Shown one piece after another: positions 6,539-45,590 of a stretch of 46,353 bases of DNA. Source of the DNA: a virus (Duplodnaviria > Caudoviricetes); the IMG/VR virus record IMGVR_UViG_3300032035_000006, positions 1 to 46,353 of that record; one strand, given 5' to 3'. Both the position numbers and the translations under genes were made by a program. Numbering within the stretch: position 1 is the stretch's first letter; every line of letters starts with the position of its first letter. The notes below the pieces were generated by a model, which had not been told where the DNA came from, searched no databases, and saw nothing but the letters and a program-made list of their open reading frames with translations.

Positions 6539-7528
6539 GTGGGCCTACATCTGCTGATCGCTGACATCCACGCCACCCGGCGCCCGCCGTCGCGGTGCAC
6601 CGACACGTACTGGCCGGACCTGCTGGGCCTGCTGGAGCAGACCGCCCGGTGGGCCGCCGAGCTGAACGTGGTCACCGTCACCTGGGCCGGCGACACCTTC
6701 CACCACAAGGCGCCGTCCCGCACCGACCACGCCCTGCTGATGGACCTGATCGGGGTCATCCAGTCCTACCCGTGCAAGGTGCTCGCCGTGGACGGCAACC
6801 ACGACATGCAGCACGACCGGCCCCAGTCGGTCGGCGCCACCCAGCCGCTCGGCGTGCTGTACAAGGCCGGGCTGACCCGGCTGGGCGGCTGGGCCTTCGA
6901 GGACCGCAATCCGTTCGCCTGGCTGTACGGCGTGCCCTGGCAGCAGCACTGGTCCGAGGGCCATATCGAGGCCGCGCTGGACCGCTGGCGGAACCCGGAG
7001 CTGCCGGTGCAGCCCGCCCTGGTGGTCACGCACGCGCCCATCTACCCGCCCGGGCAGGAGCCCCGCTACGAGGGCGCCGAGTACACCCCCGCCGCCTGGT
7101 GGGCCAGCGCGATGGGCAACCAGGGCAGCGTGTTCTACGGGCACATCCACGAGCCGCACGGCGAGTTCGAGGTGGACGGGGTCACCTTCTGCAACTACGG
7201 GGCGCTGTCCCGCGGCTCGCTGGATGACTACAACCTGGACCGCACCCCCGGCTTCACGCTGTGGGACGACAGCACCGGGGCGTTCAGCTTCATGCCGCTG
7301 GACGCCCGGCCGGGGGCCGAGGTGTTCCTGGCCGAGGAGGCCGCCACCGAGGCGGCCAGGGCGGGCCGCCTGGACGCGTTCCGGGCCGACCTGGCCAAGG
7401 TGTCGCTGCCGCGGCTGAGCATCGAGGGCGTCATCGCCGAGATCAGGGAGCGGGGGCTCGGCGCCGACGTCGAGGAGCTGGCCGAGGAGCTGCTGACCGC
7501 CGCCGCGCACGAGGGAAGGAAATCATAG
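6539..7528 (+). CDS. sbcD: SbcD/Mre11-like metallophosphoesterase nuclease
   Basis: ADIH, AGDTFH, GNHD, VTH, GHIH, NYGALSR motifs. Confidence 0.88.
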   Translation: MGLHLLIADIHATRRPPSRCTDTYWPDLLGLLEQTARWAAELNVVTVTWAGDTFHHKAPSRTDHALLMDLIGVIQSYPCKVLAVDGNHDMQHDRPQSVGATQPLGVLYKAGLTRLGGWAFEDRNPFAWLYGVPWQQHWSEGHIEAALDRWRNPELPVQPALVVTHAPIYPPGQEPRYEGAEYTPAAWWASAMGNQGSVFYGHIHEPHGEFEVDGVTFCNYGALSRGSLDDYNLDRTPGFTLWDDSTGAFSFMPLDARPGAEVFLAEEAATEAARAGRLDAFRADLAKVSLPRLSIEGVIAEIRERGLGADVEELAEELLTAAAHEGRKS

Positions 7529-12791: not shown

Positions 12792-12947
12792 GTGGAACTG
12801 GCGGTCCTGCTGACCCTGCAGCTGCCGAAGGGCATGTCTGCTGCCGAGGCGTGCGCGGAGATCCGGCGCTCGGTGGAGTTCGGCCAGCCGCAGCTGCAGG
12901 TGATCTACGTGATGGAGAAGCGACCTGATGACGAGCCGGACTCCTGA
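12792..12947 (+). CDS. Small hypothetical protein (51 aa)
   Basis: Fills the gap, GC3-rich codons. Confidence 0.45.
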   Translation: MELAVLLTLQLPKGMSAAEACAEIRRSVEFGQPQLQVIYVMEKRPDDEPDS

Positions 12948-15900
12948 GTTCATCGGCCGCTGGCTGGAGGCCGGCGACGGGGAGAATCTCGCCCTGATGG
13001 ACGGCCCGATGCAGTTTCTCGGCGACGAGCCGAACACCGTGCTGGCCGAGTCGGGGTTTGACCGGGCGCTACTGTGGAAGTCCAGGTCCGCGGTCCGCTG
13101 GCTGATGGCCGCTTCCTGGCCGTATGAGCAGGCCGCGGGCAACATGGCCATCCCGGTCGTGTACTGGGGAATCAACGACGGCGACCCGTCCTGGCTGGCG
13201 GACCGGTGGTACCTGCCCGCCACCCCGCGCGACCTGGGCATCCTGGAGCGGGCCGGGCTGCCCGCCTGGGGCATCGAGACCCGGCACCAGCTGACCGACT
13301 TCGACGTGGTCGGCACCTCGGTCAGCTACCCGGTGCTGGCGATGAACTACGCCAAGACCCTGGCCATGAGCGGGGTGCCGCTGCGCTGGCGGGACCGCCA
13401 GGAGCAGGCCGCCGACTACCCCATGGTCATGGCCGGCGGGCAGGCTTACAGCGCGCCCGAGTTCATCTCCCCGATGCTGGACTGCTTCTGGCTGGGCGAG
13501 GTCGAGGACGAGCCGGGCAACCCCGGCGGGATCAGCGACTTCTGCGCTGTCATCGCGTCAATGAAAGCGGACGGCGCCTGGGCCGGGGACCGGCTCGGCT
13601 GCTACGAGCGGCTGGCCCGCCAGTTCCCGCACGTCTACTTCCCCCGGTTCACCGAGTTCACCTACAAGTACCAGGACCGCGGGCTGCCCGAGACCACCCT
13701 GATGGTCTCCGGGATGGCCTCGTCGCTGGGGCTGACGCATCGCGCCCGCCAGGTGCGCGACCTGAACGCCATCGCGCCGTTCACCCGGTCCCCGCTGCTG
13801 TACTCCGACCCGGGCATGGGCTCCGGCGACGTCGAGGTGGGCCGCGGCTGCACCTGCTGGTGCAGCTTCTGCAAGCTGAGCTGGGTGACTAAGCCGTACC
13901 GGCAGCGCTCGGTGCCCTACGTGCTGGCCTCGGCTAAGCGGTGGCGGCTGAACATGGGCTCGCTGGACATCAGCCTGGTCGCCCCCGACCCCCCGGTGCA
14001 CACCCAGCTCAAGGCGCTGATCGCCGGGATCATGGAGCAGGTCACGCCCTGGATCGACGCCAGCTCCATGCGGATCGACGACTTCACCTCCGAGGGCGCC
14101 GAGTTCGCCCGGCTGCTGAAGGCGGCCGGGCAGGACAGCCTGACCCTCGGCCTGGAGGCGGGCAGCCAGCGGCTGCGGGACGTGGCTGGCAAGGGCACCA
14201 GCGACGACGAGGTGGTCCGCGCGGTCACCGCCGCTATCAGGTGCGGCATCAGGAAGATAAAGATTTACTTCATCACCAACTGGCCCGGCGAGGAGGCCGC
14301 CGACGTCATGCGGGTGGTCGAGTTGGGCCGGCGGCTGGCCGACGTCCGCGAGTCGTTCGGCGCCGACGCCCGCGGGGTGCGCATCCAGTTCTCCTACACG
14401 CCGCTGATCGTGGAGGCGCAGACCCCGCTGCAGTGGTTCGCGGTCACCGCCCCGGACTACACCCTGCAGGCGGCGCTGTCCCAGCTGAGCGAGCTGCACA
14501 TCGACAAGAAGCTGGGCAGCAAGGCCAGCCCGGCCAAGCTCGCCTTCTTCCAGGCCTGCCAGCGGGCGTCCCGGCGGGCCGGGGAGGCCATCGTCGACGT
14601 GCTGGAGGAGCTGGACCGGGCCTCCTGGGGCGGGTTCCCCAAGGACATGCGCGAGCGGCTGGACGCGGCGCTGGCCCGGCGCGGGTTCCGCAACGGGCTG
14701 GAGGACCTGTTCGGCGAGCGGTACCGGGAGGACCTGTTCGGCTGGGAGCACATCAAGACCGGGGTGTCCGCCGGGCTGATGTGGCGGGCCTACCGGGACA
14801 TGGTCGACCTGCTGGAGAACACCGACGCGGAGACCTACGACGAGGACTGCGAGGGCGAGTACCGCGGCGTGGAGTGGGTGCAGCGGTGCGACGAGGGCTG
14901 CGCCGGCAACACCTGCGGCGCGTGCAGCCGGGAGGACCTGGAGCTGCGCCGGGACTACATCCGGGACGGCAGGCAGGAGCGGGACCTGCGCGCCGACCCG
15001 GTGACCCCGCTGGACCACTCCACGGTCGCCTGCCGCATCCGGGTCAAGACCAGCCGCCCGCGCGCGCACCGGATGGTCTCCAACGAGTTCTACCAGCACC
15101 TGATCCGCCGGGCCGCGTTCCGGGCCGTCGAGGAGATCGGGGGCTGCCCGCCGATCGCCGCGCACACCGTCCGGCTGGCCAGCGACAACATGGTCTACCG
15201 GGACCGCACCGACGGGGCCGAGTACATCGAGTTCGGCGTCACCCGGTGGGTCAGCCCGGCCCGCGCCGGGTGGATCGTCGAGGTGATGGGCCGCGAGCTG
15301 GCCCCCTGGATGGAGCTGGCCCCCGGGCCGGAGCCGTTCGCCCTGCTGCCCGCCGACGCGCAGCTGCCGGTCCGGCCGCTGAGCCTGTGGGAGCTGCCGG
15401 TCGACCGGGCCCCGGAGGACCTGGCCGCCCTGCTGGCCGCCTGGGACGCGGCGGAGAAGATTCCGGTCCGGCTCCGCAAAGAGAGCTTCTACGGGGGCGA
15501 GGTCCCCGAGGACGGTGACGCCAAGGACCACGTGCAGGACATGTGGGCGGTCCGCGACGGGCACCAGGTCAGGCTGCGGATGCTGCTGCGCGGCCGGCTC
15601 GGCCCCTACCAGGCGTACGCCGCCCTGGCCGGGATGCCCAGCTGGATCGGGGCCGCCCGGCAGGTCGCCACCCGGGTCGACTTCTTCCGCGGCGAGGGGC
15701 AGGCGTGCCTGCGCTGCGGCCGGGGCATCCCGGCCGGGCTGCTGGACGAAGTGTTCGACATGGACTTCTGCCCCCGGTGCAAGGACGAGGACGGCGGGCA
15801 GATTGTCGCCGGGCTCGCCCGGGCCCGCGTATTACCGGACGCGGCCTGGTCTTCCCTCGGGCCGCGCAATCGTCAACAGGTGGGGAGAGAGCTGTGGAAA

Positions 15901-16182
15901 ACCCCGGCACCGCTGAGCTGGTGCTCTGGCTGGACGAGCCGGTTCCCTGCATCTACGCGCCCTGCGCCGGCACCGCCGTGCTGGAGTTCGACGGCACCTG
16001 CACCTTCCGCGAGTGCGGGGAGTGCGGCGGCACCTGGGCGCACCGGCTGGAGCGCACCGAGGACCCCGGGTGCCAGCTCGGCCTGGCCGTCCCCGCCCAG
16101 CAGGCCGCTCCGCCCGGGCAGGCCTTCCTCGGCGGCATCGGCAGGAGGCCGGGATGATCGTCGGCAAGTCCTTGTCGGATGA
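12928..16182 (+). CDS. TIGR03960-like radical SAM protein fused to a TIGR03936/DUF2344-like region; protein-like coding probably ends near 15834
   Basis: LTDFDVVGTSVSY, EVGRGCTCWCSFC (CxxxCxxC), LTLGLEAGSQRLR, KIKIYF, QTPLQW, HRMVSNEFYQHLIRRAAFRA. Confidence 0.8.
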   Translation: MTSRTPEFIGRWLEAGDGENLALMDGPMQFLGDEPNTVLAESGFDRALLWKSRSAVRWLMAASWPYEQAAGNMAIPVVYWGINDGDPSWLADRWYLPATPRDLGILERAGLPAWGIETRHQLTDFDVVGTSVSYPVLAMNYAKTLAMSGVPLRWRDRQEQAADYPMVMAGGQAYSAPEFISPMLDCFWLGEVEDEPGNPGGISDFCAVIASMKADGAWAGDRLGCYERLARQFPHVYFPRFTEFTYKYQDRGLPETTLMVSGMASSLGLTHRARQVRDLNAIAPFTRSPLLYSDPGMGSGDVEVGRGCTCWCSFCKLSWVTKPYRQRSVPYVLASAKRWRLNMGSLDISLVAPDPPVHTQLKALIAGIMEQVTPWIDASSMRIDDFTSEGAEFARLLKAAGQDSLTLGLEAGSQRLRDVAGKGTSDDEVVRAVTAAIRCGIRKIKIYFITNWPGEEAADVMRVVELGRRLADVRESFGADARGVRIQFSYTPLIVEAQTPLQWFAVTAPDYTLQAALSQLSELHIDKKLGSKASPAKLAFFQACQRASRRAGEAIVDVLEELDRASWGGFPKDMRERLDAALARRGFRNGLEDLFGERYREDLFGWEHIKTGVSAGLMWRAYRDMVDLLENTDAETYDEDCEGEYRGVEWVQRCDEGCAGNTCGACSREDLELRRDYIRDGRQERDLRADPVTPLDHSTVACRIRVKTSRPRAHRMVSNEFYQHLIRRAAFRAVEEIGGCPPIAAHTVRLASDNMVYRDRTDGAEYIEFGVTRWVSPARAGWIVEVMGRELAPWMELAPGPEPFALLPADAQLPVRPLSLWELPVDRAPEDLAALLAAWDAAEKIPVRLRKESFYGGEVPEDGDAKDHVQDMWAVRDGHQVRLRMLLRGRLGPYQAYAALAGMPSWIGAARQVATRVDFFRGEGQACLRCGRGIPAGLLDEVFDMDFCPRCKDEDGGQIVAGLARARVLPDAAWSSLGPRNRQQVGRELWKTPAPLSWCSGWTSRFPASTRPAPAPPCWSSTAPAPSASAGSAAAPGRTGWSAPRTPGASSAWPSPPSRPLRPGRPSSAASAGGRDDRRQVLVG
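15894..16157 (+). CDS. Small Cys-rich (zinc-finger-like) protein
   Basis: SD GGGGAG, GTG start; CIYAPC...CGECG; ATGA coupling to next gene. Confidence 0.6.
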   Translation: MENPGTAELVLWLDEPVPCIYAPCAGTAVLEFDGTCTFRECGECGGTWAHRLERTEDPGCQLGLAVPAQQAAPPGQAFLGGIGRRPG

Positions 16183-17642: not shown

Positions 17643-17874
17643 CCTGGCCGGACGGCACAGCAGCACCCTGCACCTGATGAAGTGGCTGGTGCCCAACCCG
17701 AACCTGGACGGCATTGCGCTGGACGTGTCGACCGTCATCTGGCACGCCGCGATCGAGCTGACGGAGCTGCTGAACGACGGCCCGGAGCTGAGCGCCGCGC
17801 TGCGCAAGCTGCGCGAGGCCAAGGACGCCGCGGTGATCCAGGCCCTGGAGGACTCCGGGATCAGGACCGGCTAG
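17620..17874 (+). CDS. Small conserved phage helical-hairpin protein
   Basis: DGPELSAALRKLREAKDAAV motif. Confidence 0.6.
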   Translation: MQRRAAPDLAGRHSSTLHLMKWLVPNPNLDGIALDVSTVIWHAAIELTELLNDGPELSAALRKLREAKDAAVIQALEDSGIRTG

Positions 17875-18599
17875 TGCGCAGGCTGCTGTGGGCGGTCCCC
17901 ACCCGCGGTCGGCCGGAGCGGCTGGGCGTCCTGCTCAGCCGGGGGCTGGAGCTGGCCGCCGCCGAGACCGACTTCGCCATCGGCATCGACCACGACGACC
18001 CGGCCGGCCCGGCCTACCTGCAGGTGGCCGAGGCCCTGGCGGCCGGGCCCCGGGTCAAGTGGCTGTTCCGGGAGCGGGACACGCTGACCGGCTGGACCAA
18101 CAAGCTGGTCGGCACGTTCGAGGGGCAGTACGAGTACTACGGCTCGATCGGGGACGACCACGAGCCGGAGACCCAGGGCTACGACGCCGACCTGGCCGGC
18201 GCCCTGGACCGCATCGGCGGCGGCATCGCCTACCCCAACGACATGCACCAGGGCGCGTGGCTGCCCACCTGCGCGGTGGTCAGCGCGGCCATCGTGGAGG
18301 CGCTGGGCTGGCTGTGTTACCCGGGCTGCCGGCACTACTTCGTCGATGACGTCTGGAAGCACCTCGGCGGGCTGGCCGGCTGCCTGGCCTACCTGGACGG
18401 GGTGCACGTCCGGCACCGGCACGCGGTGTTCGGGGAAGCGGCAAACGACCGCACGTACGCCGAGAGCATGCCATACTGGGCGGCTGACCAGGCCGCGTTC
18501 GAGCGCTGGCTGCAGGGCCAGGTGGACGAGGCCGGGATGGTCATCAGCGGCAGCGACGTGGACAAGGCGCGGAAGGCGGTGGGCCGTGAGCGTGGCTGA
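17874..18599 (+). CDS. Glycosyltransferase (GT2/GT-A fold)
   Basis: VPTRGRP, IDHDD, GDDH, HYFVDDVW, VRHRH. Confidence 0.8.
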   Translation: MRRLLWAVPTRGRPERLGVLLSRGLELAAAETDFAIGIDHDDPAGPAYLQVAEALAAGPRVKWLFRERDTLTGWTNKLVGTFEGQYEYYGSIGDDHEPETQGYDADLAGALDRIGGGIAYPNDMHQGAWLPTCAVVSAAIVEALGWLCYPGCRHYFVDDVWKHLGGLAGCLAYLDGVHVRHRHAVFGEAANDRTYAESMPYWAADQAAFERWLQGQVDEAGMVISGSDVDKARKAVGRERG

Positions 18600-19170
18600 G
18601 GACTACATGGAGCGGCTCGGCGCCTGGTCCGACATCCGGGGTCACCTGGAGTTCATGTACAAGACCGTCATCGGCTACCGGCGGCCCCGGGTCATCGAGC
18701 TGGGGGTGCGGACCGGGGTGTCCACCTGCGCGCTGCTGGCCGGCGCCATCGAGGTGCAGGGCAAGCTGTGGTCGGTCGACGTCGACGAGCCCCGCGTCCC
18801 GGAGTCCTGGCTGGCCGAGCCGGACTGGACCTTCATCCGGGGGGACGACCTGACCGGGCCGGTGATCGACGCGCTGCCCCGCCGCTGCCAGGTGCTGTTC
18901 GTCGACACCCTGCACGACTTCGACCACGTGCTGGCCGAGCTGGCCGTCTACATGCCCCGGCTGACCCGGGACGGCGTGGCGCTGGTGCACGATACGGAGT
19001 GGGACGTCGGGGACCGGCAGCTAGAGGGGCCGACCGGCCCGGTGGCCCGGGCGCTGGACGACTACTGCGCCCGGCACGAGCTGACCTGGGGGAACCGGCC
19101 CGGGTCCTACGGCATGGGCGTGATCCGGCCCGGGATCTACCCCGCGGGCCAGACCCGGCCGTGGGGGTAG
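18586..19170 (+). CDS. Class I SAM methyltransferase (Methyltransf_24-like)
   Basis: VIELGVRTGVST, WSVD, LFVDTLH, VHDT. Confidence 0.85.
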   Translation: MSVAEDYMERLGAWSDIRGHLEFMYKTVIGYRRPRVIELGVRTGVSTCALLAGAIEVQGKLWSVDVDEPRVPESWLAEPDWTFIRGDDLTGPVIDALPRRCQVLFVDTLHDFDHVLAELAVYMPRLTRDGVALVHDTEWDVGDRQLEGPTGPVARALDDYCARHELTWGNRPGSYGMGVIRPGIYPAGQTRPWG

Positions 19171-19173
19171 CCG

Positions 19174-19965
19174 ATGCGGTGGTGGGACTGCTTCATGTTC
19201 CGCGGTGAGCTGGACATGCTGGAGTGCCGGCTCACCGAGCTGGAGGACTCCCCGGTCTGGCGGCACGTCCTGGTCGAGGCGGACGTGACCCACCGCGGTG
19301 ACCCCAAGCCGCGGGTCTTCTTCGAGAACCGGGAGCGGTTCGCCCGGTGGAAGGAGAAGATCGTCTACGTGTCCGGCAACCTGCCCGGCCGCGAGGACGC
19401 CCCGGACCTGGACCCGTGGGTCCGCGAGCACCAGCAGCGGAACTGGGCCGGGATCGCGCTGGAGCGGGCCGGCCCGGGGGACCGGGTGCTGATCTCCGAC
19501 GTGGACGAGATCCCCTCGGCCGCGGTGTGGGCGGCCAGGCCGCCGGCCCTGCTCATGCAGCGGGTGGCCTGCTTCGCGGCCGACTGGCTGTGGCCGGTGC
19601 CCGAGCCGACCGGCGTGACGGTCACCGTCGAGCACCTGCGCGGCCTGCAGTTCGACCTGGCCGCCGCGCGGGACGCCCGGCACTCCTACCGTCAGGTGCC
19701 GGATGCCGGCTGGCACTTGTCATGGATGGGCGGCCTGGACGAGCACCTGGCCAAGCTGGCCGCGCACTGCCACCTGGAGCAGGACACCCCGGACACCGTC
19801 CGGTTGATCACCTCCGGCCAGGCCTGGCAGCAGGGCTGGCACATCGGGGTCAAGCTGGTGCCGGCCGACGTCGACGAGACCTGGCCGGGCTACGTCTGGC
19901 GGCGCGAGTGCCCGGACAGCTGGTTCCGGCCGCGGGAGGAGGAGCCGTGCCCGAGGTCCGGCTGA
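19174..19965 (+). CDS. Glycosyltransferase family 17-like
   Basis: DCFMFRGELDMLECRL, VEADVTHRGDPKP, REHQQRN, ISDVDEIP, GWHLSWMGG. Confidence 0.85.
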   Translation: MRWWDCFMFRGELDMLECRLTELEDSPVWRHVLVEADVTHRGDPKPRVFFENRERFARWKEKIVYVSGNLPGREDAPDLDPWVREHQQRNWAGIALERAGPGDRVLISDVDEIPSAAVWAARPPALLMQRVACFAADWLWPVPEPTGVTVTVEHLRGLQFDLAAARDARHSYRQVPDAGWHLSWMGGLDEHLAKLAAHCHLEQDTPDTVRLITSGQAWQQGWHIGVKLVPADVDETWPGYVWRRECPDSWFRPREEEPCPRSG

Positions 19966-20408
19966 ACCTGGGCTGCGGCGCCCGGCCGACGCCAGGCTGG
20001 GTCAACGTCGACATGGTCGGCGTGCCCGGCGTCGACGTGGTGCACGACCTGGACGCCTTCCCCTGGCCGTTCGAGGACGAGTCGGTCGCGGTGATCCGCG
20101 CGTTCGACGTCTTCGAGCACGTGGACCGGCCGCTGGAGTTCGTCAACGAGTGCTGGCGCATCCTGGAGACCGGGCATCACCTGATCATCCACACCACCCA
20201 CTGGCAGACCGAGAACAGCTACACCGACCCGACGCACAAGCGGTTCTGCACCCCGCGCACGTTCGACTACTGGATCAGGGGCTCGGAGTACCACGCCCGG
20301 TACGGCCCGGTCTACTCCCGGGGCTGCGACTTCGAGCTGGTCGACCGCCGCACCGACGGCCAGGAGCTGGCGTTCCTGCTGCGCAAGCTGGCCCGGGCGG
20401 ACGATTAG
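19947..20408 (+). CDS. Class I SAM methyltransferase (Methyltransf_11-like)
   Basis: LNLGCG, GWVNVD, DVVHDL..FPWPF, VFEH, ECWRIL, DPTH. Confidence 0.88.
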   Translation: MPEVRLNLGCGARPTPGWVNVDMVGVPGVDVVHDLDAFPWPFEDESVAVIRAFDVFEHVDRPLEFVNECWRILETGHHLIIHTTHWQTENSYTDPTHKRFCTPRTFDYWIRGSEYHARYGPVYSRGCDFELVDRRTDGQELAFLLRKLARADD

Positions 20409-28073: not shown

Positions 28074-28103
28074 CTTGACACCGGTCAAGCAAGAGCGTAA
28101 CGT
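28074..28103 (+). promoter_or_regulatory. Promoter of the RNA array with overlapping palindromic operator
   Basis: TTGACA-17-TAACGT; CTTGAC-ACCG-GTCAAG overlaps the -35. Confidence 0.85.
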
Positions 28104-28341
28104 AGGGGGTGAACGAGAAAACCCGGTTGCCGGACAGCCCGGCAGCCCGATAACGTAGGAGTCATGGTGGGCACGAGGCAAGCACAGCGACACGGGTGGT
28201 CAGACCCGTTCATCGCGCTGCCCGAGTGCGCCAAGGACGCCGAGGTGGCACCTGGATAAGGACCAGCAGGACCTGAGACCAGGAGCCGCCCCCGGGACAC
28301 ACCGGAAAGGGCGGCTCTCGGCATCTAGGACAACTTCACAT

Positions 28342-28415
28342 GGGTGAGTGGCACAGCGGCGACTGCAGTCATTCCAAAACCGCCATCATCGAGGGTTCGA
28401 GTCCTTCCTCACCTG
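28342..28415 (+). tRNA. tRNA-Trp(CCA), degenerate anticodon stem
   Basis: Acceptor GGGTGAG/CTCACCT, T arm GAGGG-TTCGAGT-CCTTC; anticodon stem does not pair. Confidence 0.6.
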
Positions 28416-28580
28416 CGACCGTCGGCCGAGCGAGAGCGAAGCGGGCGCATGTCAACTGCAAATTCTCAAGACCATAGCGTGAGCATCGAGCGGGCCTGCC
28501 AAGCCTGCTCACATACGACCCTGACCGCCGTATGGCGGCAGGGACAAGGCGGCTCCGGGCTCCGGCCCGGTGCTGCCCCT

Positions 28581-28657
28581 GGGGCCTTAGCTCAGCTCGG
28601 TAGAGCGGCTGCATGGCATGCAGTAGGCCGCGGGTTCAAATCCCGCAGGCTCCACCA
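28581..28657 (+). tRNA. tRNA-Ala(GGC)
   Basis: Full cloverleaf, G3-U70, CCA encoded. Confidence 0.95.
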
Positions 28658-28774
28658 GGAGAGATCGGGGTGCAGAGTAGGGCGCCGGCGGTCCGCTAGC
28701 CGCGGCTGCGGGTCGTAATCGGCCGGTCGTCCTCCCGGGTTCGGGCCAAGCGCCCAGACCACCTCTGCGGTCAA

Positions 28775-28851
28775 GGGGATGTAGCTCAGCCTGGTAGAGC
28801 GCCCGGTTCGCACCCGGGGTCTTCGCGTCGGTTCAAATCCGTCCTTCTCCA
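28775..28851 (+). tRNA. tRNA-Ala(CGC)
   Basis: Cloverleaf, CCCGG-TTCGCAC-CCGGG; some stem mismatches. Confidence 0.85.
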
Positions 28852-28948
28852 CTCGGGCTAGCTGGCTGGCCCAGGCGCCGAAGTAAGGTCCGGCCTGGTC
28901 GCGAACGGGACCGGAACGAGGTATCAGAGGCACGACAGCCAGCAATGA

Positions 28949-29020
28949 CAGGATCGAGGAAGACGGTAATCTGCCTCGTTCGGAGCGAGGAGAAACCGGG
29001 TTCGACTCCCGGGGTCCTGA
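28949..29020 (+). tRNA. tRNA-Pro(CGG)
   Basis: CAGGATC/GGTCCTG, CCTCG-TTCGGAG-CGAGG. Confidence 0.88.
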
Positions 29021-29133
29021 CGAGAGGGAGATGCGGGTTCAAGTCCTGCCCTGCCAGTAAGAAGCCCCGTTTAGTGTCCGGTCGGCGCGAGGGGTTCTGG
29101 CAGGTAGCTCAGCCGGATAGAGCACCCTCATAA
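29021..29133 (+). ncRNA. Circularly permuted tRNA-like element (YrlA-like topology)
   Basis: 3' half GAGGG-AGAT-GCGGG TTCAAGT CCTGC-CCTGCCA precedes 5' half TGGCAGG-TA-GCTC..GAGC-A-CCCTC; linker forms a hairpin closing the acceptor end. Confidence 0.85.
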
Positions 29134-29205
29134 CGGGAAATCGCGTAAGGGTCAGCGCGCCTGCTTTGGGAGCAGGCAGATGGGGTTCGAGTCCCTGTTT
29201 CCCGA
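29134..29205 (+). tRNA. tRNA-Pro(TGG)
   Basis: CGGGAAA/TTTCCCG, CCTGC-TTTGGGA-GCAGG. Confidence 0.88.
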
Positions 29206-29270
29206 CTGCGGGGAGGAACCCCTGGCACGGGTCGCGGAGCGGGGTCTCCGTCCGGCCGCCTCCCCCCTAT

Positions 29271-29330
29271 GGCTCTCTAGCTGAGACGGATTAGCGCCGG
29301 ATTGAAGCCCCGGGCTAGGCAGGATCGTTA
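29271..29330 (+). pseudogene. tRNA-Phe(GAA) truncated after the T loop
   Basis: GGCTCTC-TA-D arm-CCGGA TTGAAGC CCCGG-GCAGG ATCGTTA; 3' T-stem and acceptor strands absent. Confidence 0.7.
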
Positions 29331-29545
29331 GCAGCTGGGTAAGGGTGAAACGGCGGTGTAAGAGACCACCAGCAGGCCGGGTGACCGGCCTGGCTAGGTA
29401 AACCCCACCCGGAGCAAGACCGCAAGGCCGAGGGCGGCCCGCCCGCTGACGCCTGGTAGGTCGCACGAGCCAGGCGGCGACGTCTGGCCTAGATGGATGG
29501 CCGTCACCCCGCGAGGGGGACAGAACCCGGCCTACAGGCCGGCTC
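29331..29545 (+). ncRNA. rnpB: RNase P RNA (type A, actinobacterial), 3' half only
   Basis: GGTAAGGGTGAAACGGCGGTGTAAGAGACCACCAG, GGTAAACCCCACCCGGAGCAAG, CTAGATGGATGGCCGTC, GACAGAACCCGGCCTAC; 5' GAGGAAxGTCCGGG segment missing. Confidence 0.9.
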
Positions 29546-29682
29546 AAAGCTGTATGCTGCTCGCGCCTGGCGCTGGTCCCGATCAGCCGACCCCCAAGTT
29601 TGCTCCAGGGGCTGGCGCCAGGTTTTCCCGCCTCCGGGCGGATGTGCGGTATAAGTCCTGGCTGCTCAGGCCAGGCATCCAT

Positions 29683-29755
29683 GTGACCGTAGTGTCTAGC
29701 GGTAGCACGCGACTTTGCCAAGGTTGCAGCGCGAGTTCGAATCTCGTCGGTCACT
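29683..29755 (+). tRNA. tRNA-Gly(GCC)
   Basis: GTGACCG/CGGTCAC, loop TTGCCAA, U73. Confidence 0.9.
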
Positions 29756-29775
29756 CGGAGGAACAGGCCCCTTGC

Positions 29776-30183
29776 TCAGTTGCCCACCCCGGCGCAGTAG
29801 GTGACGAAGTACGTCGTGGAATTACCCCGGGTGTCGCACTTCAGGGAGCCGTACCAGATCGCGGCGTACACGTCCTCGCGCATCCAGTACGACCGGCCGC
29901 CAGCGGTGAAGTTGACCCCGGCCTGCGCGTGGTTCGTGTTGTTCCCGACCGTCCCGCACCAGGTGACGTGCGCGCCGTTGTATGCCGGGCAGTGCACGTA
30001 GCCGGACTTGATGCTGATCAGTATGGTGGAGTGAGCCGCGTTGAACTGGACGAACGCGCTCGCTGGAGCGCTGTAGGCTTCTGCGCCGTAGTACTGGTAC
30101 GTGCCGGCGGAGGCCGGGGAAGCGGCCAGGGCCAGCCCGGCAGCCAGCGCCAGGGCGGCGATGATGCGACGGGTAATCCCCAT
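29776..30183 (-). CDS. Secreted protein with signal peptide
   Basis: MGITRRIIAALALAAGLALAASPASA; SD AGGGAG; four Cys. Confidence 0.75.
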   Translation of the reverse strand: MGITRRIIAALALAAGLALAASPASAGTYQYYGAEAYSAPASAFVQFNAAHSTILISIKSGYVHCPAYNGAHVTWCGTVGNNTNHAQAGVNFTAGGRSYWMREDVYAAIWYGSLKCDTRGNSTTYFVTYCAGVGN

Positions 30184-30247
30184 GTCACTCCCTGCGTGCG
30201 ATTACCGGCAGGATAACCCCGGTAGCGGGGTGTGTGAAGTGCTCAAT

Positions 30248-30325
30248 GTCCGAGTAGCCCAACTGGCAGGAGGCATGCGGCTCAGACCCGTAGATGTGTG
30301 GGTTCGAATCCCACCTTGGACACCA
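30248..30325 (+). tRNA. tRNA-Leu(CAG), short variable loop
   Basis: TGCGG-CTCAGAC-CCGTA, CCA encoded. Confidence 0.9.
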
Positions 30326-30326
30326 T

Positions 30327-30416
30327 GGAGCTGTGGCCTGGAGTGGCTGCACAGGAGCCGGTTGCTAACCGGCCGACGCGAGACGTCCGCGGGTTCGAAT
30401 CCCGCCAGCTCCTCCA
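30327..30416 (+). tRNA. tRNA-Ser(GCT)
   Basis: Long variable arm, GCCGG-TTGCTAA-CCGGC, CCA. Confidence 0.92.
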
Positions 30417-30417
30417 T

Positions 30418-30504
30418 GGAGGGTTCGCCTAGTCAGGCCTATGGCGCCTGCCCGGAAAGCAGGTTGGGCGTCAGCCCTCGGGGGTTCGAATCCCTCACCC
30501 TCCG
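30418..30504 (+). tRNA. tRNA-Ser(GGA), C33
   Basis: CCTGC-CCGGAAA-GCAGG, long variable arm. Confidence 0.9.
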
Positions 30505-30839
30505 CTCAGGTTGGCCGGGGCGGTCCAGCCTGCCTCGCAGCTGAAGATGCCGGTCGAGTTGTACATCACGATGTCGCCCAGGCGGCGCGCCTGGCCCGGG
30601 TGGGCGAACGCGTAGCAGGCCTGGAACCACTCGCGGAACTGCCAGTCGCTGGCCAGGGCAATGGCGTCGGCGCCGTGGCCGGTGGCCTTCTCGATCAGCG
30701 CGCTGCCGTCTGGCAGGCCCGTCTCCGTGGCCATCTGGTCGAAGCCCCTGGCCAGGTAGACGGCCTTCCCCTCGGCCCAGTGCCCGGCTGTCTGCACTCG
30801 GTAGGGGCTGCCGCTCGCGTCGAAGTCGTTTCCTGGCAT
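30495..30839 (-). CDS. Hypothetical protein
   Basis: GC3-biased minus-strand ORF filling the gap between tRNAs. Confidence 0.55.
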   Translation of the reverse strand: MPGNDFDASGSPYRVQTAGHWAEGKAVYLARGFDQMATETGLPDGSALIEKATGHGADAIALASDWQFREWFQACYAFAHPGQARRLGDIVMYNSTGIFSCEAGWTAPANLSGG

Positions 30840-30944
30840 CGCGCATGACGCTAGCACTTGCCGCGGCAGTTGCACAGACTCCCTGCGCACGGTTGACTCT
30901 GCCGCGTTACCTGGGTTACGCGATTACCGCCTGGCCGCAATCCT

Positions 30945-31029
30945 GGAGCTGTCGCCTAGTGGCTTATGGCCGCCGTCCCGAAAACGGCCGAGGGTAACTC
31001 CTCCGTGGGTTCGAATCCCGTCGTCTCCG
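30945..31029 (+). tRNA. tRNA-Ser(CGA), C33
   Basis: GCCGT-CCCGAAA-ACGGC, long variable arm, one acceptor mismatch. Confidence 0.82.
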
Positions 31030-31161
31030 CTAGCCGATCTTGGCCCGGCGTATGCGCTCTTTGCGCTCGAAGTTGCCGAGGTTGTTGAAGCCCCACCAGC
31101 GGCCGATCCGCAAGCCTATGAACAGGCCCACTATCAGGCCCACGATCAGAGCACCAGCCAT
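31030..31161 (-). CDS. Small membrane protein (43 aa)
   Basis: MAGALIVGLIVGLFIGLRIGRWWGFNNLGNFERKERIRRAKIG. Confidence 0.55.
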   Translation of the reverse strand: MAGALIVGLIVGLFIGLRIGRWWGFNNLGNFERKERIRRAKIG

Positions 31162-31199
31162 GGCACGGATGGTAACCCGCGCCTGGCCATTTGTAACTA

Positions 31200-31273
31200 G
31201 GTCGCATAGCTCAGCCAGGGAGAGCGCCTGCTCGACAAGCAGGAGTGCGCTGGTTCAAACCCAGCTGTGACCA
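31200..31273 (+). tRNA. tRNA-Val(GAC), C33
   Basis: CCTGC-TCGACAA-GCAGG. Confidence 0.9.
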
Positions 31274-31274
31274 C

Positions 31275-31347
31275 GCCTCTTTAGCTCAACGGACAGAGCG
31301 GCCGGCTACGAACCGGTCAGATGTGAGTTCGAATCTCGCAGGGGGCA
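31275..31347 (+). tRNA. tRNA-Arg(ACG)
   Basis: GCCGG-CTACGAA-CCGGT. Confidence 0.92.
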
Positions 31348-31351
31348 CTCA

Positions 31352-31425
31352 GGGCGATTAGCTCAGCGGCAGAGCGGCTGGTCCACACCCAGTGCCGTGC
31401 ACAGGTTCGAGTCCTGTATTGCCCA
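31352..31425 (+). tRNA. tRNA-Val(CAC), C33
   Basis: GCTGG-TCCACAC-CCAGT. Confidence 0.88.
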
Positions 31426-31429
31426 CTAT

Positions 31430-31505
31430 GGTGGCCGAGTTCGAGAGGCGAGGAGCCGGGCTGTGAATCCGGTTGGAGAGGGGTCGGTACCCTCCGGTCA
31501 CCCCA
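31430..31505 (+). tRNA. tRNA-His(GTG), noncanonical T loop
   Basis: G-1/C73, CCGGG-CTGTGAA-TCCGG, T loop GTCGGTA, CCA. Confidence 0.82.
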
Positions 31506-31506
31506 A

Positions 31507-31588
31507 GGCGGAAGTGAGCGCCGGCGCGCTCAGCGGTCTGTAAAACCGTCGCTTTCGGGCATGCCAGGGTCGGCACCTGGTTCCGCCA
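31507..31588 (+). tRNA. tRNA-Tyr(GTA), noncanonical T loop
   Basis: GCGGT-CTGTAAA-ACCGT, long variable arm, T loop GTCGGCA. Confidence 0.82.
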
Positions 31589-31735
31589 CTCTTTGCACCG
31601 CGGTCGTGACCGGCCCGTGCCGATGCCAGCAAACCGGACCTCGGACTCGGTAACCCATCAGAGCGCCTGATGACGAGGGTCACGCTCCGCGGCGCCGCTC
31701 AGCACGTTAGCAGTGTGTGACAGCAATGTCACTAA

Positions 31736-31806
31736 GCGCCTGTCGTTCAATGGACAGGATGGCGGCCCCGAAGCCGTTGATGGAGGTTCGACTCCTCTCA
31801 GGCGCA
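31736..31806 (+). tRNA. tRNA-Arg(CCG)-like, 6-nt anticodon loop
   Basis: GCGCCTG/CAGGCGC, GCGGC-CCCGAA-GCCGT. Confidence 0.7.
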
Positions 31807-31810
31807 CTAT

Positions 31811-31886
31811 GAGGCACATCTCGCCGGCGCGGGATGCGGTCCGCAAAACCGCAGCAAGCCGGGTTCGACTCCCGGGTGTCTCTCCA
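31811..31886 (+). tRNA. tRNA-Cys(GCA), C33
   Basis: GCGGT-CCGCAAA-ACCGC, U73, CCA. Confidence 0.85.
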
Positions 31887-31887
31887 T

Positions 31888-31963
31888 GACCCCGTGGTCC
31901 AGTGGACGAGGACGACGCCCTCCTAAGGCGTAAGCGCGCGTTCGAGTCGCGCCGGGGCCGCCA
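31888..31963 (+). tRNA. tRNA-Arg(CCT)
   Basis: ACGCC-CTCCTAA-GGCGT, CCA. Confidence 0.9.
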
Positions 31964-44027: not shown

Positions 44028-45590
44028 ATGACTGACTTCACCCGCAGGACCTTCATCAGAGCTGGCGTGCTCGGCGGCACCGTCGCGCTGCTGCCCTGGG
44101 GCGGCCGGGCCGTGGCCGGCACCGCCTCGGCCGCGGCTGGCGCGGTGCAGCCCGGCCAGCCCGTCCCGACCGGCGGCAAGATGCTCGCCCCGATGGCGTT
44201 CATGTTCCCCGACCTCCCCCCGTTCGTGCCGGACCCGGACCCCGACACCGCCACCACCGAGCTGATGGCGCTGGCTAACACCCTGCTCGATCCCAACGTC
44301 ACCGCCGGGCCGGGAAACCGGGACCAGGTGGGCAGTTTCGGCAGCTCGCTGACGTATCTCGGGCAATTCATCGACCACGACAACTTCCTGGACGGCGAGC
44401 CGCAGCCGACCGCGTTCTTCGGCCGCGACAACCAGGGCAACCTGCTCGACCCGGACGGCAGCATCGTCTTCAACCTGGAATCATTCAGGTTTGACCTGAG
44501 CAGCGTGTACGGTGGCGGGCCGGCGGTCTCGCCGCAGCTCTACGCCAGCGACGGGGTGCGGATGCTGGTCCAGGAGGACAACGGCAACGGGGTCCGGGAC
44601 CTGCCCCGCGACAGCTCCGGGGTCGCGATCCTCGTCGAGCACCGCAACGACGAGAACGAGATCATCGCCCAGGTGCACGTCGCGTTCCTGAAGTTCCACA
44701 ACGCGGTGGCCGACGCCATGCCCGGCGCGGGCTTCGACCAGGTGGCCGCCACCGTGCGCCGGCATTACCAGTGGATCGTGATCCACCAGTTCCTGCCGCA
44801 CATCTGCGGGGACGGCGTGGTCTCCGGCCTGCTCGACGGGTCCATCCCCAGCCTGTACAAGGCCGGCAACCCGAACGCGCCGCTGGTCCCGGTCGAGATG
44901 CAGGTCGCCGCCTACAGGTTCGGCCACAGCATGGTCAGGAAGGCCTACGAGCTGACGGTCAGCACCGGCAAGCTCCAGGTCTTCAACGGGACTGCCGCTG
45001 ACCTGCACGGAGGCCGCCCGATCCCCAGCGGGAGGCAGATCGACTGGGGCAACTTCGTGCTGCCGCTGCAGCGTCCCGAGAACGCCGCGCACTTCAACAA
45101 CCCGCGGTTCATCGACACCCTGGTCAGCTCCGGCCTGTTCACGCTGCCGATCGGCGGCCCCGGCGGCGCCGAGGCGTCCGGGTCGACGGTGCTGCCGTTC
45201 CGCAACCTGCTCAGGGGCTTCCGGTACGGCCTGCCCAGCGGGCAGGACGTCGCCGCGGCGATGGGCGAGACGGTGATCAGCCCCGCGGACGCGCTGCCGG
45301 ACAACGTCGACAGCGCCGCCATCACGGCCGGGTTCTCGGGCGGCACGCCGCTGTGGTTCTACGTCCTGCGGGAGGCGGAGCTGGGCGGCGGGCTGACCCT
45401 GGGCCGGACCGGAGCCCGGCTGGTCGCCGACTCGTTCCTGGGCTCCATGACCGCGGACAAGGACGGGCTGCTGCACGACAACAGCCCGACCAGCCGGCGG
45501 TGGCAGCCCGTCCCGCCGATCGCCCCGGCCCCGGGGCAGTTTGGCCTGGAGGATCTCCTCGTGTTCGCCGGCGTGGCCGCCCGGCCCTGA
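44028..45590 (+). CDS. Tat-secreted heme peroxidase (peroxidase-cyclooxygenase / An_peroxidase family)
   Basis: TRRTFIR Tat signal; YLGQFIDHD, RNDEN..IAQVH..FLKFHN, AAYRFGHSMVR, GLPSGQDVA, TPLWFYVLREAE. Confidence 0.9.
   Translation: MTDFTRRTFIRAGVLGGTVALLPWGGRAVAGTASAAAGAVQPGQPVPTGGKMLAPMAFMFPDLPPFVPDPDPDTATTELMALANTLLDPNVTAGPGNRDQVGSFGSSLTYLGQFIDHDNFLDGEPQPTAFFGRDNQGNLLDPDGSIVFNLESFRFDLSSVYGGGPAVSPQLYASDGVRMLVQEDNGNGVRDLPRDSSGVAILVEHRNDENEIIAQVHVAFLKFHNAVADAMPGAGFDQVAATVRRHYQWIVIHQFLPHICGDGVVSGLLDGSIPSLYKAGNPNAPLVPVEMQVAAYRFGHSMVRKAYELTVSTGKLQVFNGTAADLHGGRPIPSGRQIDWGNFVLPLQRPENAAHFNNPRFIDTLVSSGLFTLPIGGPGGAEASGSTVLPFRNLLRGFRYGLPSGQDVAAAMGETVISPADALPDNVDSAAITAGFSGGTPLWFYVLREAELGGGLTLGRTGARLVADSFLGSMTADKDGLLHDNSPTSRRWQPVPPIAPAPGQFGLEDLLVFAGVAARP

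Follow-up and report, generated by a model that had tools for sequence, protein, structure and literature searches.

A probable deletion scar in a phage tRNA array joins a truncated tRNA-Phe to the 3' part of an RNase P RNA gene

Results

Gene content and tRNA array of the phage record

The window analyzed here, meaning the whole stretch of DNA under study, is an entire virus record of 46,353 bases. Head and packaging genes among the 50 scanned ORFs (183 are listed) included a terminase-like protein, a portal, a head protease and a decoration protein; the same scan found RecA, a clamp and clamp loader, an endolysin and several HNH and endonuclease VII genes. A radical SAM protein of 1,084 residues, a glycosyl-/methyltransferase cluster and a haem peroxidase-like ORF adjoined the head genes (12928-16182, 17682-20408 and 44028-45590 for this set). 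The GC content was about 70% and the tRNA-Gly matched Streptomyces phages, indicating that the host is likely actinobacterial. The tRNA genes formed an array on one strand at about 28340-31963 (ARAGORN, Rfam). The features on which the analysis turns are listed below; L025 is a related metagenome contig described in a later section.

28075..28103, plus strand: promoter-like sequence TTGACA-17-TAACGT upstream of the array, seen in the sequence (predicted)
28127-28156, plus strand: second, weaker promoter-like site upstream of the array
29134..29206, plus strand: tRNA-Pro(TGG), called by ARAGORN and Rfam; left synteny anchor, at the same position in L025 and relatives
29271..29330, plus strand: truncated tRNA-Phe(GAA), equal to the first 60 bases of the complete L025 tRNA-Phe
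29331..29337, plus strand: seven junction bases, GCAGCTG, matching neither L025 flank
29338..29546, plus strand: 3' remnant of a class A RNase P RNA gene (rnpB), Rfam RF00010
29683..29756, plus strand: tRNA-Gly(GCC), called by ARAGORN and Rfam; right synteny anchor
30945..31030, plus strand: chimeric tRNA with a Ser(CGA) body and an Asp(GTC)-type 3' end, the join lying in T-loop sequence common to both

A sigma-70 scan reported no plus-strand promoter, the site at 28075..28103 falling under its threshold. The promoter-like site before the array would place the tRNA-Phe/rnpB fusion inside the array transcript, which makes its passive transcription with the array probable.

Structure of the junction

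The truncated tRNA-Phe retained the acceptor 5' strand, the D arm, the anticodon arm, the T-stem 5' strand and the T loop, and had lost the 3' strands of the T and acceptor stems. Neither ARAGORN nor Rfam called a tRNA at 29271..29330, and in folding the cloverleaf was formed by the L025 tRNA-Phe and not by the window copy. The RF00010 match at 29169-29550 scored 110 bits (gathering score 100, E 6.7e-33), with a good alignment only from about 29338; the 5' positions of the model were forced onto tRNA-Pro/Phe sequence with many non-standard pairs. Half an rnpB gene beside tRNAs may exceed the Rfam gathering score in this way and be misannotated as full length. In the Rfam alignment the remnant kept the conserved 3' regions J12/13, P13/P14, the GGU of L15, P18 and ACAGAA-P4 3'. 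Its helices are presumably J12/13, P13, P14, P15-P18 and P19, and the 3' strands left without partners are those that we take to be P11/P10, P7, P5, P2, P4 and P1. The first 161 or so bases of rnpB were missing, including the P4 5' strand with its bulged U. Under the same assumed helix names, the remnant misses the 5' strands of P1, P2, P4-P7 and P10-P12 plus all of P3, P8 and P9. P1, P2, P3 and P5-P12 were not closed in the window copy, their 5' strands lying in a block present only in L025. Folding of the whole fusion gave z = -1.87, with 7 of 200 shuffles as good, and did not indicate a new joint structure.

A sequence-only reading made before this analysis had described the 3' part of rnpB joined to a tRNA-Phe without its 3' end, and both Rfam and the contigs of 4/4 runs bear this out. 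It had rnpB starting directly after the T loop; the tRNA-Phe does end at 29330, but seven unmatched bases precede 29338. The break, which it placed near the P12 apex, actually lies in the 3' strand at the base of P12. Its statement that the 5' half is missing from the window was upheld: the P4 5' motif (GAGGAA-N-GUCCGG strand, bulged U) gave 0 matches in the window at up to 2 mismatches, against 1.2 expected by chance, and was not found when the window was extended with record G001 to about 70 kb. A circular permutation, with the 5' half downstream of the 3' half, was rejected, no 5' motif being present downstream. The roughly 70 kb covered belong to a genome estimated at 150 kb (G001 has 40.5 kb and 27% completeness). 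Extension by end sequences brought 0 viral contigs upstream and only G001 itself downstream. Annotated phage records offered no counterpart: 0 of the 36 that matched covered 80% of the query, and matches were confined to tRNA-Gly/Glu and short pieces of rnpB.

The seven junction bases GCAGCTG were absent from both strands of the 1,640-base L025 block. P12 differed in all six aligned relatives, one of which (L005) has the similar GCAGCCT at the junction position. Given this variability, GCAGCTG most plausibly represents a P12 3' strand from a different allele: it is probably derived from a parental rnpB with a different P12, or else is repair filler.

Support for the junction

The tRNA-Phe/rnpB junction was confirmed as real, as far as contigs show. 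The exact 24-base junction occurred in three other viral contigs, 99.85-99.97% identical to the window, and five of the six metagenome matches were collinear across it (one of the five, L021, probably being the record of the window itself). Contigs of 4/4 runs bridged it and reached 36-43 bases beyond the left break. This support consists of contigs, not raw reads, and the runs and the viral and metagenome contigs may share samples. The junction was present on two left-flank haplotypes, and at least 97% of the sequence words were found in 24/24 listed runs, which are possibly the source samples; no RNA run was among those listed. An assembly collapse between the two regions would be in keeping with support that comes from contigs throughout and from runs that may be source samples; nevertheless, a collapse is highly improbable, since the junction recurs in all of these contig sets and on both haplotypes, no repeat is common to its two sides, and the seven junction bases match neither side of the sister.

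An intact allele in a sister contig

The sixth metagenome match, L025 (2,623 bases), carried the intact allele. It was 96.8% identical to the window over 29054-29338 and 98.8% over 29338-29756, with an extra block between the two. The distance from the T loop to the first shared rnpB base was 1,640 bases in L025 and 7 in the window, a net loss of 1,633. The block contained the tRNA-Phe end, Gly(TCC), an HNH gene, 7 further tRNAs and the rnpB 5' part (161 bases). ARAGORN called 8 tRNAs in it, namely Gly(TCC), Lys(CTT), Leu(CAA), Gln(CTG), Thr(CGT), Leu(GAG), Gln(TTG) and Thr(GGT); the HNH ORF encodes 146 residues and matched phrog_2255 (E 2.9e-29). The rnpB of L025 was a full RF00010 match (267 bits, positions 1-367) in which all long-range helices were paired and P1, P2 and P4 were free of non-standard pairs. 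Judging from this intact predicted pairing, the L025 RNA is probably active with a host RnpA.

The missing tRNA-Phe end as found in L025 is CCTGCGGGAGCCA, which differs from the end predicted earlier; loose matches to that prediction numbered 11 in the window against 15.9 by chance, none of them meaningful. The P4 5' strand of L025 reads GAGGAAAGTCCGGG, where GAGGAAGGTCCGGG had been predicted. Comparison with relatives had been set beforehand as a test that could overturn the more unusual readings, and the full rnpB in the near-identical L025 points to a recent deletion.

The intact allele is known from a single 2.6-kb contig (1/6 metagenome and 0/3 viral matches to the left-flank 18-mer), and the deletion form was the commoner one in the samples where it was found. 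Over the left flank, a deletion-carrying contig (L003) differed from L025 at 1 of 277 bases and the window at 6. To the right of Gly(GCC), the window had an insert and other Leu/Ser alleles compared with L025. Because the seven junction bases differ and the window insert after Gly(GCC) is missing, these comparisons identify L025 as a sister and not as the direct parent.

Gene order and presence of rnpB in relatives

The order Phe, Gly, Lys, Leu, Gln, Thr, Leu, (Thr), Gln, Thr, rnpB, Gly, Leu, Ser recurred in L004/L011, L008, L018 and L071, with full rnpB genes of 253-280 bits. In these loci, as in L025, tRNA-Gly(GCC) came after rnpB. This recurrence argues that the long form is ancestral. L004/L011 belonged to the same phage group as the window, its portal being 86% identical and its head module showing 77-84% DNA identity. 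L008, L018 and L071 had the array in common with the window but matched neither its portal nor its terminase. The window terminase ORF matched 0/5 of the relatives' records and the portal one (G006). Records G004, G005 and G007 share the tRNA array, while kinship of their head genes to the window is not supported by terminase or portal matches.

In L005 the rnpB sits at a different slot. The gene was missing from the slot in L078/L083 and L086, and no rnpB was found anywhere in G007, a complete record of 210 kb with the same array (the control search was positive in 11/14 known genomes). These absences indicate that phage rnpB is an accessory, dispensable gene. RnpA (PF00825) was found in 0/5 complete rnpB- or array-carrying viral records, indicating that intact phage RNAs would need a host protein.

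More widely, 47 viral loci matched the P4 5' motif, and 19 of them had at least 3 tRNAs within 2.5 kb, representing 16 distinct sequences. Thirteen of these 16 tRNA-array loci, viral by record label, exceeded the RF00010 gathering score over the full model. L032/L053, L042 and L064 had both P4 strand motifs within tRNA clusters yet scored below the RF00010 gathering score, and are possibly shortened or diverged phage RNase P RNAs. Long P12 insertions were seen in the viral-record RNase P RNAs of L014 (1230-1712) and L005 (1294-1708), that of L005 being a near-palindrome. In viral records L027 (13-130), L062 (1213-1330) and L063, only the 5' part of an rnpB was present; it broke off near P12 or J12/13, in L062 at an N, and unrelated sequence came after it. 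These three are unrelated to the window phage, and their 5' parts may be integration ends or misjoins. All 14 matches from a scan of genome contigs with a motif adjacent to rnpB lacked a tRNA within 2.5 kb and were taken as chance.

A substitution in the P4 3' strand

Over 29338-29547 (210 bases), the remnant differed from the full gene of L025 at a single position, a T to C change in the P4 3' strand (29532). Here the P4 pair was Watson-Crick in 37/37 scorable full-length genes, 28 with A-U and 9 with C-G (44 motif matches, of which 7 were not scorable). The C was present in 9/9 remnant-carrying loci, and it pairs with neither A nor C; its cost was 0.7 kcal/mol in a duplex estimate. The change fits relaxed constraint, and would agree poorly with completion by the sister's or a typical actinobacterial 5' half. 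It could also be half of a compensated G-C pair in another parent. No gene with such a pair was seen: L037, alone among the viral matches in having a G there, was a chance match inside coding sequence and was rejected. One difference in 210 bases (99.5% identity) leaves the remnant nearly unchanged, which is too little to demonstrate decay.

A second scar in the same array

The Ser/Asp chimera lies 1.7 kb from the rnpB scar. Contig L024 was identical to the window up to 31019, had a fully paired Ser acceptor stem and continued with Ile, Met, Ile, Lys and Arg. In the window chimera, by comparison, the 3' end resembled the Asp(GTC) of L079 and the acceptor stem was poorly paired. The Ser/Asp join was found in 8 distinct contigs, the window's own probably among them, and not in L024, which does carry the rnpB deletion. 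On this comparison the chimera is read as the scar of a second block deletion in the array. Most simply, the loss in rnpB would have preceded the Ser/Asp deletion, although recombination could obscure the sequence of events.

Other elements of the array

Small minus-strand ORFs lay between tRNAs, antisense to the array, at 29757-30247, 30495-30890 and 31031-31199. They had no PHROG or Pfam match, and the first of them (29757-30247) was missing from L025. ARAGORN missed tRNA-like genes at 28342-28415 (30.9 bits in Rfam), 31430-31507 and 31508-31590, the latter two His- and Tyr-like by eye. It called a tRNA-Thr at 6647-6737, inside a phosphoesterase ORF on the opposite strand, without Rfam support.

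A permuted tRNA-like element occupied 29022-29134, between Pro(CGG) and Pro(TGG), where L070, L071 and L086 have Pro(GGG). Its order is T arm, acceptor-like stem closed by a long hairpin, and D arm, with which the fold agrees; it matched YrlA weakly (32.6 bits, gathering score 69, model positions 24-84 of 114). A TROVE/Ro60 gene was present in 2/5 array-carrying records (G004 and G007) and not in G001 or G006. Immediately upstream of tRNA-Gly(GCC), at 29626-29682, was a two-hairpin element with an invariant linker. It also occurred in L079, L078, L084 and L086, was conserved whether rnpB was present or absent, and showed both-sided changes in 3 of 15 predicted pairs (5 sequences). It had no Rfam match at E up to 1.

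Discussion

The locus is very probably the scar of a recent deletion of about 1.6 kb in an eroding phage tRNA array, with a remnant that is predicted to be inactive. Compared with the sister, 1,633 bases would have been lost, from the tRNA-Phe T loop to helix P12 of the rnpB that belonged to the phage itself. The single left-flank difference in 277 bases between L003 and L025 argues that the event was recent. The break was presumably joined without long homology, as no bases are shared with the sister and seven are unmatched; no microhomology was demonstrable. That an array HNH nuclease made the break would be a guess. The remnant would be unable to form P1-P4 and would therefore have no active site; the window copy is not counted within the functional RNase P RNA family. 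The phage would depend on host RNase P, like phages without rnpB, and the array would lose its blocks stepwise, with the rnpB deletion followed by the Ser/Asp deletion. Among the three readings offered from the bare sequence, the deletion scar stood, while the split ribozyme and the RnpA decoy gained no positive evidence.

A two-piece ribozyme, in which a 5' half relocated to another part of the genome would join the remnant RNA in trans, together with host RnpA, appears very unlikely. About half of the genome lies outside the 70 kb or so covered, the remnant is almost free of mutations, and inactive fragments of E. coli RNase P RNA reassemble in vitro, as PMC11143913 describes. However, no 5' half was present in the window and G001, and no near-identical one in G002-G003. 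Comparison of 103 loci, among them every one of the 47 viral loci with the P4 5' motif, yielded no near-identical 5' half, the best partial match being 89% over 90 bases. The same break destroys the tRNA-Phe and removes 8 tRNAs, and it was seen in one population only, more than 99% identical, diverged relatives having the whole gene or none. The C at 29532 also mispairs with the sister's 5' half. A 5' half that supplies a compensating G to P4 and complements GCAGCTG in P12 would make this the first natural two-piece RNase P RNA, one that trims phage tRNAs, and we give that outcome very little chance. In the fragment complementation described in PMC11143913, RNase P RNA fragments complemented each other in vitro, and the piece that was active separately was the whole catalytic domain. 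Such complementation needs a complementary piece, which was not found here, and the present remnant is without the catalytic domain.

A decoy or dominant-negative role, in which a retained remnant would capture host RnpA or base-pair with the host's RNase P RNA, is equally hard to credit. In its favor, the sampled soils carry the deletion form widely (24/24 listed runs, possibly the source samples). RnpA binds RNase P RNA near P2-P4, which the remnant cannot form. No diverged relative has kept a 3'-only piece, and there would be little benefit in such a decoy for a phage whose own tRNAs must be trimmed. A decoy role was once suggested for the poxvirus RNase P-like RNA, as related in the review PMC3001073; that text describes the poxvirus RNA as inactive and protein sequestration as excluded.

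An attP-like 3' copy of a host rnpB, restoring the gene upon integration, recalls phages that integrate into stable-RNA genes such as ffs (PMC12540744) and the classing of a related record, G003, as a provirus, yet it is the least credible reading of all, being contradicted by L025, in which the sister phage's complete gene is 99.5% identical to the fragment and holds the same array position, and no integrase was found among the 50 scanned window ORFs of the 183 listed.

Compared with the bacterial class A RNase P RNA (rnpB, E. coli M1 RNA; RF00010), the window copy aligns well to the model from J12/13 to P1, and the sister matches over its whole length; the window copy differs in being phage-borne, inside a tRNA array and short of its first 161 or so bases. 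Phage and mobile-element tRNA arrays, as in actinophages and mycobacteria, carry HNH genes and half-tRNA deletion scars. The window array resembles them in being dense and on one strand, with HNH genes interspersed among the tRNAs, losses of whole blocks, and chimeric tRNAs whose joins fall in shared T-loop sequence. Unlike them, the array of this clade has a complete RNase P RNA, and the window deletion ends inside rnpB with a join that lacks homology.

Extra, diverged rnpB copies beside an endonuclease gene are described in Mycobacterium austroafricanum and M. sp. YC-RL4 in the consulted part of PMC9569102, where they are considered horizontally acquired. In that text the copies are in bacterial assemblies and are not assigned to phage, whereas the carrier of the window copy has terminase, portal and head genes. 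No description of a phage RNase P RNA was found in the full-text literature searched. RNase P is unmentioned in the main text of PMC7162821, PMC10690425 and PMC8346664, and the passages of PMC8172020 and PMC12636597 in which it was seen concern bacteria or an assay. The earlier claim that an RNase P RNA is unusual in a phage tRNA array thus holds against the literature searched; what is unusual is the intact gene of the relatives and not the broken copy.

The scar itself would be ordinary genome erosion, and its value is indirect. It reveals large soil phages, probably actinobacterial, that have a complete RNase P RNA in the tRNA array and from which the protein subunit is absent. With the deleted allele, the intact one makes up a natural pair that is nearly isogenic, and the L025 gene is a candidate for testing, for the first time, whether a phage RNase P RNA is active. 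Phage rnpB, it appears, can be lost, here in a population that is abundant across many soil samples.
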